From: a virus
Lineage: Duplodnaviria > Heunggongvirae > Uroviricota > Caudoviricetes
Reading direction: 5' to 3' (one strand)
DNA length: 27,303 bases
Virus record (IMG/VR): IMGVR_UViG_2690315994_000016
Span: 1-27,303 of that record
How positions within the stretch are numbered: the stretch's first letter is position 1; every line of letters begins with the position of its first letter. Shown here piece after piece: positions 2,100 through 2,679 of this stretch. The notes beneath the pieces were generated by a model. That model had not been told where the DNA came from, ran no database searches, and saw only the letters and a program-made list of their open reading frames with translations. A program made the position numbers and the translations under genes.

Positions 2100-2117
2100 T
2101 GTGTGGTAAATGACACA
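2100..2117. promoter_or_regulatory. Candidate late-promoter activator (Ogr/Delta-type) dyad TGT-N12-ACA upstream of V
   Basis: tgtgtggtaaatgacaca at 2100..2117, centred ~55 bp upstream of V start; motif recalled from P2 late promoters; chance occurrence is frequent. Confidence 0.3.
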
Positions 2118-2148
2118 AATACAATTCCAATCAAAGAAAGGTAAAAGA

Positions 2149-2679
2149 ATGAGCCATCCAATTGATTATTACGCTATAGAAGAACACGCAAGAATAATTG
2201 AGCAATTATGCTGTTCATCTGAATTTTATTTACAGCGTATATATTCCACACAGAAAGTATATGATGGTTCTATAGTAACTGAATTTGAAATGGAGGAGTT
2301 ATCGTACAACGGATGGTTGGAATATACCATTAGCAACAATCTTATTAGCCTTTGTACAAAACTACGAATTCTCCAAGACACTAGTGAACATGAGTGGAAC
2401 CCAGATTACTCACCTGAGAAAGAAGCATTTGAAGAACATGAAAATATACTTTTTGTTATAGATGGTCATGTTAAAGATTCTATACGCGAATGCTGCAATA
2501 AAATTATTCACGCATTAAGTTTTGAGTTAACAAAAAAGACCGGCAAAAATGGAATAAAATATTGGGACGGTTCTATTATTGCTTCTGGGGTTCAAAACAA
2601 AAAAAACTGGAAAATTAAAATAGACCTTTTCCCTTTTTGCCAAAGCATAAAAAGTTATTTAAGTTTATTAAGAGCGTAA
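2149..2679 (+). CDS. AT-rich moron, hypothetical protein (~176 aa) inserted between tail genes V and S, opposite strand
   Basis: Clean ORF in a markedly AT-rich segment; likely start ATG 2149 (AAAGG upstream) rather than 2110; no recognisable motif. Confidence 0.5.
   Translation: MSHPIDYYAIEEHARIIEQLCCSSEFYLQRIYSTQKVYDGSIVTEFEMEELSYNGWLEYTISNNLISLCTKLRILQDTSEHEWNPDYSPEKEAFEEHENILFVIDGHVKDSIRECCNKIIHALSFELTKKTGKNGIKYWDGSIIASGVQNKKNWKIKIDLFPFCQSIKSYLSLLRA

Follow-up and report, generated by a model that had tools for sequence, protein, structure and literature searches.

A widespread one-gene cargo family in an exchangeable module between the tail genes V and S of a P2-like prophage, with a possible conflict function

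We analysed a stretch of viral DNA of 27,303 nucleotides (nt), IMG/VR record IMGVR_UViG_2690315994_000016 (hereafter the window, meaning the whole stretch), which is a P2-like prophage of the Cartapus type (Peduoviridae, Elveevirus), and we considered in particular the segment between its tail genes V and S. This segment is an AT-rich module of about 730 bp (~2067-2794) that holds one cargo gene, here called X, for a protein of 176 amino acids (aa). X is a nonessential gene from a family that is spread over very different mobile elements. From its location and its associations we propose, at slightly less than even confidence, that X is a stand-alone conflict or defence gene. The type of locus is ordinary and long known, being the orf30 site of phage P2; the new elements are a description of the cargo family, the boundaries of the module and the defence-type cargo sharing the S-V site.

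The features of the module and of its two anchors, in window coordinates, are the following (ORF, open reading frame; CDS, coding sequence; GC, G+C content as a fraction).

1475-2053, minus strand: gene V, baseplate spike, left anchor (Pfam Phage_base_V, 6.4e-18; annotation agrees)
2054-2099, minus strand: putative core of the V late promoter (pV) and V ribosome-binding region, module-specific, unrelated to the empty-site sequence past the first ~14 nt
2067-2794, no strand: exchangeable AT-rich module of the S-V (orf30) hotspot, with the cargo gene, the V late promoter and the S 3′ end
2100-2117, no strand: TGT-N12-ACA dyad, predicted Ogr-type activator site of pV, with the spacing to V found in P2
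2110-2148, plus strand: in-frame 5′ extension of the X ORF (189-aa reading), not conserved in homologues and beginning inside the dyad
2120-2125, plus strand: candidate -10 hexamer TACAAT for X, abutting the dyad, conjectural
2149-2679, plus strand: cargo gene X, 176 aa (phrog_18838; Cartapus gp14 / LF82_787), placed by its ORF, the RefSeq CDS and the homologue starts
2685-2794, minus strand: last ~36 codons of S, AT-rich and module-specific (final 90 nt with GC 0.27)
2685-3137, minus strand: gene S, tail completion, right anchor (Pfam Phage_tail_S, 4e-42)

The module is sharply delimited. In 200-nt windows GC was 0.28-0.35 across 2101-2800 and 0.54-0.62 on either side, hence about 0.30 for the module as a whole against 0.56 in the flanks. 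An earlier reading of the window made from its letters (hereafter the sequence-only reading) had described a low-GC segment of ~570 bp at 2110-2679; the low GC was correct, whereas the tract is longer, running from ~2067 to ~2794 and including the end of S and the V promoter. That reading had also proposed to define the insertion by comparing S-V junctions. In comparison with two prophages in which the site is empty (L002 and L003; labels of this kind denote our loci throughout) the V-side homology stops after AGGTTGC (~2066), ~14 nt upstream of the V start codon, and restarts at GACTGACGCG (~2795), which gives boundaries at ~2066/2067 and 2794/2795, the second of them inside S. The C-terminus of S differs accordingly, ending in ...PKGGVIKYPSRKLLGLNEHTENEVRDLLLKYLLMKN in the window and in ...RKGPEVRYAERRLLGVNDDVEAMTRDMILQWLAG in empty-site phages. 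At the same side of the module the stop codons of X (TAA, 2677-2679) and of S (2685-2687, minus strand) are convergent and separated by 5 nt, and a promoter and terminator scan predicted no intrinsic terminator between the two genes, so that late transcripts of the O operon would be expected to run antisense through X.

The sequence-only reading had also noticed a TGT-N12-ACA dyad in the gap before V. It is indeed there, at 2100-2117, with the sequence TGTGTGGTAAATGACACA, 46 nt upstream of the V start codon and with its centre at 55.5 nt, a geometry that matches the annotated pV activator site and V transcription start of P2. The bare TGT-N12-ACA pattern occurs in the window at chance level (6 found, 6.7 expected), and we therefore relied on its positional conservation instead. 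Precisely, the empty-site relatives, nine other cargo modules and X alleles down to 58-61% protein identity all keep a dyad-V spacing of 45-47 nt, while the letters of the dyad differ, being TGTGTGGTAAATGACACA in the window and TGTATCAGTGCTGATACA in empty-site phages. Since homology ends ~14 nt before V and the dyad sequence is not the same, each module appears to bring its own pV promoter; the claim that the insertion had left a promoter element in place does not hold. The exchangeable unit, as far as its sequence can tell, holds the whole pV promoter together with the end of S, the promoter function of 2054-2099 being assigned by analogy with P2.

The same dyad may bear on the expression of X. 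The promoter scan found no sigma-70 consensus promoter upstream of X; the hexamer TACAAT is present beside or overlapping the dyad also in X alleles of 58-61% identity. If this hexamer were used, the dyad would overlie the -35 region of the X promoter, and binding of the late activator could switch X off in lytic growth. Elsewhere in the window, TGT-N12-ACA dyads were found also at 8201-8218 and 8259-8276, in or at the edge of the gap that separates the divergent genes for capsid scaffold and terminase; they probably represent the Ogr sites of the late promoters pO and pP.

To see how the S-V site varies we considered 78 IMG/VR loci in which the V protein was at least 96% identical. The junction was empty in 58 of them, with a gap of 68 nt between S and V; X was present in 6, and the remaining 14 carried cargo of nine other sizes, from 0.66 to 2.0 kb. 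X is hence far from universal among related phages, and the sequence-only reading was right in taking it for a moron, acquired horizontally and standing outside the tail module: the majority of the junctions are empty, and the gene is AT-rich, antisense and under purifying selection. All the cargo had a GC of 0.33-0.38 and consisted nearly always of one ORF in antisense orientation to the late genes. In most cargo types the AT-rich C-terminus of S is specific to the type, and only the module coding for PDC-S59 (L092) shares the tail of the empty site; these module-specific tails have diverged and keep the pattern LLG-x-N...L. Similarly, the regions upstream of V are unrelated between all the cargo types except for the dyad, 45-47 nt from the V start codon, and each of the ten other junction versions (the nine cargo types and the empty site) has its own. 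The presence of own S tails and own pV dyads indicates that the cassettes are constrained to re-encode two essential phage elements.

The site houses at least ten cargo types, among which there are three known or candidate defence proteins. These are PDC-S59 (L092, 1.9e-197), an ApeA-like protein (L084, 1.4e-13; split into two ORFs in L083) and, on the late-gene strand, a TIR protein (L078) with matches to TIR_2, PDC-S66, SpbK and ThsB. Membrane-like proteins, including a DUF6216 membrane protein, were found in L022, L041, L090 and L095, and in the scan of alternative cargo two proteins had no credible match, namely P2 Orf30 and the cargo of L063, which had a sub-threshold match only. Given the known or candidate defence proteins carried by the S-V relatives, a role of X in defence or exclusion is a reasonable proposal.

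As regards X itself, the sequence-only reading had reported a single plus-strand ORF of ~176 aa opposite to the late operon, and this is confirmed. The maximal plus-strand ORF, at 2110-2679, would code for 189 aa; the true start is almost certainly the ATG at 2149, which is preceded by the Shine-Dalgarno-like GAAAGG and gives the 176-aa form annotated in RefSeq. Most homologues start with M-S/T-H (MSHPI in the closer relatives) and a minority have an N-terminal extension; the stretch 2110-2148 is, judging from this comparison, probably not translated. Besides X the module contains only two ORFs of at least 40 aa (51 and 58 aa), both inside X in other frames. The ratio of nonsynonymous to synonymous substitution rates (dN/dS) between X alleles is 0.09-0.12, and X is hence under purifying selection. 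Among the E. coli genomes with matching V and S flanks X was found in about 22 of 1019. All of the 17 copies of X in IMG/VR adjoin V with the same spacing, and S was detected on the other side in 15 of the 17; a copy in Enterobacter likewise has V adjoining at the same spacing and S on the other side. Protein identity among the IMG/VR and Enterobacter copies goes from 100% down to 58%.

We then compared the X protein with the available collections of families and structures. There was no match in Pfam, NCBIfam or PADLOC-DB 2.0 (for PADLOC none at E < = 1), and a set of X and 45 diverse relatives searched against Pfam gave no match at E < = 1, hence no fused or named domain and no HEPN family. 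Searches of PDB sequences, both with the single sequence and with a 46-member profile, returned spurious matches only, and Foldseek of the X model against PDB and the BFVD viral models gave nothing at E < = 0.001. The only assignment was to PHROGs, in which X is phrog_18838 (6.6e-127), a family with no function assigned. An exhaustive profile search of 1.84 billion representative proteins gave a family of 464 clusters at E < = 1e-3, from Enterobacteriaceae to Alphaproteobacteria and one archaeal metagenome-assembled genome. Its members are free-standing proteins of ~170-200 aa, barring partial sequences and a few longer ones, and at least 120 of them listed in a profile search were all either “hypothetical” or nameless and had no Pfam domain. 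The remote-homology and structure search that the sequence-only reading had recommended thus yielded a family and no named family or fold; its statement that X has no recognisable motif stands for Pfam, NCBIfam, PADLOC and PDB sequences and fails for the family itself, in which the helix R-E-x-C-N-K-I-I-H-A is near-invariant.

This helix is part of the family signature S-I-R-E-x-C-N-K-I-I-H-A. In the 46-member alignment the residues conserved in at least 90% of the sequences are R73, D77, R113, N117, K118, H121, G147 and W154, and His3 is widely conserved, even in the alphaproteobacterial members with an N-terminal extension (...KPH...). The AlphaFold2 model of X, with a predicted local distance difference test score (pLDDT) of 90.3 and a predicted template modelling score (pTM) of 0.86, starts with four helices (7-21, 24-34, 45-78, 89-95); a short strand then precedes the motif helix (112-120), after which come a sheet of three strands (124-159) and a final helix (160-175). 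In the model R113, N117 and H121 share one face of the motif helix, and R73 and D77 share one face at the end of the long helix.

The genomic contexts of the relatives are varied. In Aliivibrio sp. (L010) a 44%-identical homologue is a one-gene cassette at 7920-8456, flanked by attC-like repeat copies at 7772-7906 and 8466-8600, within an integron-type array (L010:600-11600) with 11 copies of a ~130-nt attC-like repeat; the integrase and attI were not located on that contig. The same array has also a ~300-nt repeat family, D1, in 6 copies, which suggests duplicated cassettes. A Pseudoalteromonas copy (one genome) has short repeats on both sides, that of Aeromonas caviae has an integrase island on one side and a CTX-like filamentous prophage on the other, that of Azospirillum adjoins an integrase, and on one metagenomic contig a family member is near an AlpA gene. 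Defence-type genes are found next to other members. In Stenotrophomonas the member is downstream of a CAP12/PCTIR TIR gene; in Hyphomonadaceae (L120:6001-7818, L121, L122) it is followed within 0-9 nt by a HEPN_Toprim_N gene of 401-404 aa, the pair adjoining a large-terminase gene; in Brevundimonas it is near ParB and a Polbeta-HEPN gene (with IS110 in one contig), and is itself followed by two uncharacterised genes. The Hyphomonadaceae arrangement is possibly a two-gene system in which the X-like protein is the partner and not the effector. Overall, the pattern looks like that of a self-sufficient single-gene cargo of many mobile elements, which sometimes lies beside defence-type genes; a conflict or defence gene would be expected to show such a pattern, and any function read from it would be guilt by association.

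To consider the expression of X we relied on E. coli LF82, since over window 1900-2900 Cartapus, the LF82 chromosome and some ten further E. coli genomes have the very same sequence (100% identity). In the S1 Table of the LF82 study (PMC9928086), which gives log2(fpkm+5) values (fpkm, fragments per kilobase per million), X (LF82_787 / CARTA_14) is at 3.5 and 2.7 in stationary lysogeny broth (LB), hence near background, at 5.1-6.0 in the samples B1, B6 and MB1 and at 4.4-4.6 in macrophages at 6 h. The same table reports V and S at 2.3-3.6 in most samples and at 2.3-3.3 in B1, B6 and MB1, V reaching ~4.3 in macrophages at 6 h; expressed in fpkm, X is at about 30-58 in four of five conditions, and V and S are at about 0-7 in most conditions. 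X is therefore transcribed weakly but independently in the lysogen, with the flanking tail genes silent, and the expression in lysogens that the sequence-only reading had asked about is found, as far as the table goes.

These values also bear on the rival that survives best, namely that X is a lysogenic-conversion gene acting on the physiology of the host (fitness under stress, in a niche or in virulence) rather than against phages, as for neaT at the G-FI site of the CFT073 P2-like prophage. Such genes do occur at moron sites of P2-like phages (PMC3573123), the X transcript in the LF82 table is 4-8 fold higher in B1, B6 and MB1 than in stationary LB (PMC9928086), and some members of the family lie among ordinary chromosomal genes. 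The rise is not specific to X, however, since the CI repressor, at 8-9 outside stationary LB and ~5 in LB on the same log2(fpkm+5) scale, and other Cartapus genes go up in the same LF82 samples of that table. Besides, a family whose members occur in phages, in integron cassettes and on further mobile elements of very different hosts fits a conflict function better than a niche, and there are TIR and HEPN genes among its neighbours. We consider this explanation improbable, if still one to be kept in mind.

A toxin or addiction element, for instance the toxin of a type I or III toxin-antitoxin system with an RNA antitoxin, that stabilises the module or the prophage is a further explanation, to which we give a rather small chance. 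Toxin-antitoxin cassettes are common in chromosomal integrons, the conserved polar residues of X look catalytic, and antisense transcription across X is to be expected from the convergent S and the lack of a predicted terminator. Neither the X module nor the Aliivibrio cassette has a partner ORF, though, many relatives are free-standing single genes, and no toxin family in Pfam or PADLOC was matched; no conserved RNA element turned up either, with no search aimed at one.

X could also serve the phage itself during infection or induction, as an anti-defence or take-over protein or as a modulator of late expression. In favour of this there is the dyad of pV, which X adjoins and possibly shares, so that its expression could be coupled to the lytic switch. 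Yet X runs antisense to the two late operons and its transcript is present in the lysogen without induction, the gene is missing from most of the close relatives, its homologues occur in integron cassettes and chromosomes, in which service to a phage makes little sense, and its 176 aa with enzyme-like conservation are unlike typical small inhibitors; we therefore judge this explanation very unlikely. That X is an integral or essential tail or morphogenesis gene of the lineage, for which its position between tail genes is the one argument, we rejected on the empty-site relatives as having practically no chance, since 58 of the 78 relatives have the 68-nt S-V gap and no X, the gene is in only 22 E. 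coli genomes, and its strand is opposite, its base composition foreign and its homologues also non-phage.

The explanation that we prefer, a stand-alone conflict gene, can be put as follows. The self-contained module of ~730 bp would swap between related phages through recombination in the conserved parts of V and S, and it would stay compatible with the phage by carrying its own S C-terminus and its own Ogr-dependent pV promoter. Its passenger would be one independently transcribed cytoplasmic protein, predicted to fold as a helical bundle, a three-stranded sheet and a final helix, that would benefit the lysogen as an anti-phage defence or abortive infection gene. The near-invariant polar residues H3, R73, D77, R113, N117, K118 and H121, on two helices, would form the working surface. 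In its most specific form the protein is predicted to be a HEPN-like, metal-independent ribonuclease (RNase), harmless until infection. From the motif and a weak resemblance of fold, a HEPN-like RNase is our best mechanistic guess, and we think it more probably wrong than right. The full statement that X founds a new and widespread family of one-gene anti-phage effectors with a non-canonical HEPN-like RNase site, and that S-V is a further defence hotspot, we regard as doubtful to a similar degree. In such a case the site would be made of the helix R-x3-N-K-x2-H, the N-terminal His and the R-x3-D helix, and the family would be common to the S-V hotspot, chromosomal integron cassettes and filamentous-prophage islands.

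Several observations weigh against this proposal as a whole or against its HEPN part. The defence role would be drawn from association, X has no match in PADLOC, and three copies of the family stand alone among housekeeping genes. The pairing of genes in some lineages may indicate that X, when solo, is a sensor or a regulator and not an effector. Its expression is low, and at the 5-fold cut-off of the LF82 study, in stationary LB, it was not scored as a moron (PMC9928086). As for HEPN, the motif of X, R113-E-C-C-N117-K-I-I-H121, is R-x7-H (N-x3-H) and not the canonical HEPN Rx4-6H; X and its 45 relatives have no Pfam or NCBIfam match, including the Pfam HEPN families, and no sequence relative in PDB; and hhalign of the X family against a 23-member alignment of DUF4145 gave a probability of 0.13%.

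DUF4145 (PF13643), which we take to be a HEPN-clan family, came into consideration because of a protein coded in the same prophage at 11074-11772. It has R-x3-D (FRLCLD) and, ~50 residues on, K-D-D-G-N-D-G-A-H, and X has a similar pair, R-x3-D (RILQD) and R-E-C-C-N-K-I-I-H 40 residues on; with an hhalign probability of 0.13%, the resemblance is a lead at the level of motifs and not homology. Against the ApeA-like cargo of the S-V site the hhalign probability of X was 1%. The nearest HEPN comparisons that can be named are ApeA, AbiV (stand-alone abortive infection) and the toxins SO_3166 (5yep) and HEPN/MNT (7ae2). Given the R-x7-H motif, the lack of a HEPN family match and the negative hhalign comparisons, we did not assign X to HEPN.

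The DUF4145 protein (minus strand; the equivalent of Cartapus gp01) has features of its own. It adjoins cos, in a hotspot of the old/tin type, has a Cys-rich N-terminal region and a weak PADLOC match (PD-T7-4, 2.4e-6), and in the RNA-Seq table of LF82 it goes from log2 4.7 in LB to 9.6 in macrophages at 6 h (PMC9928086).

The remaining part of the window can be described by comparison with Escherichia phage Cartapus, one among the prophages of E. coli LF82. Identity to Cartapus is 99.9% over window 107-11900 and 95.5% in the early region, and the parts that differ are 11900-13333 and all the sequence beyond the integrase. In the first of these segments there are a phosphoribosyltransferase (PRTase)-like gene (12173-12754, plus strand), whose protein matches PADLOC ShosT (1.3e-8) and PsyrT, and an overlapping ORF of 189 aa with no match (12745-13314, plus strand); the pair 12173-13314 may form a defence system of two genes, of the Shosta-like or DprA-PRTase type, within the cos-proximal hotspot. 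Directly past the P2-type integrase (19833-20846), in AT-rich DNA with GC 0.30-0.37, a gene at 20860-22617 (minus strand) codes for a 585-aa protein with a cytidine/deoxycytidine monophosphate (dCMP) deaminase domain (4.8e-15), which may be further hotspot cargo or a defence-type deaminase. The very AT-rich region 23008-27278 codes for a further tyrosine integrase (Arm-DNA-bind_3 / Phage_int_M / Phage_integrase) and, after it, for a DUF6119 protein of 603 aa and one that has a peptidoglycan-binding domain; it resembles a separate integrated element that borders on the prophage. About one in five complete E. coli genomes contains P2-like prophages.

The variable loci of P2-like prophages are already a source of new defence systems, and X is a small and easily cloned candidate; assigning its function would serve a family of ~460 clusters without annotation. 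The anatomy of the module illustrates, in addition, the constraints that an essential operon puts on the exchange of cargo within it.

Among known systems the closest comparison is the orf30 locus of P2. The sequence-only reading had stated that S and V are adjacent in P2; in fact P2 carries there the nonessential Orf30 (261 aa) which, like X, is placed between S and V and runs opposite to the late operons, is without assigned function and has an Ogr-type activator site just upstream of V at the same distance. The two proteins are unrelated (hhalign probability 0.5%), and the two loci differ in that P2 has a predicted terminator between S and orf30, whereas in the X module the stops are 5 nt apart and none was predicted. 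A second comparison is with the cassettes of sedentary chromosomal integrons, which are reported as rich in defence systems (bioRxiv 10.1101/2024.07.02.601686). The Aliivibrio homologue is likewise a one-gene cassette, a status that says nothing specific on the function of X.

Finally, S-V is one of the three recognised moron regions in P2-like phages (PMC6823313), and it can be set beside the hotspots from which defence systems are known. The available parts of the work on P2-like hotspots (PMC9122126 and the iLund4u survey) treat A-Q (old/tin), G-FI (Z/fun) and one near CI, and make no mention of S-V. Like the sites of the P2 defence genes old, tin and fun(Z) and of the P2/P4 hotspot systems (Rousset et al. 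2022, PMC9122126), S-V is a small variable locus between conserved genes; it shares with the P2/P4 hotspots of that work a high turnover of cargo and AT-richness, and its relatives carry defence or candidate defence genes. Unlike the P2/P4 hotspot systems, X matches no PADLOC model; and unlike what occurs at the old/tin and Z/fun hotspots, the unit swapped at S-V must also code for the end of an essential gene and provide a late promoter.

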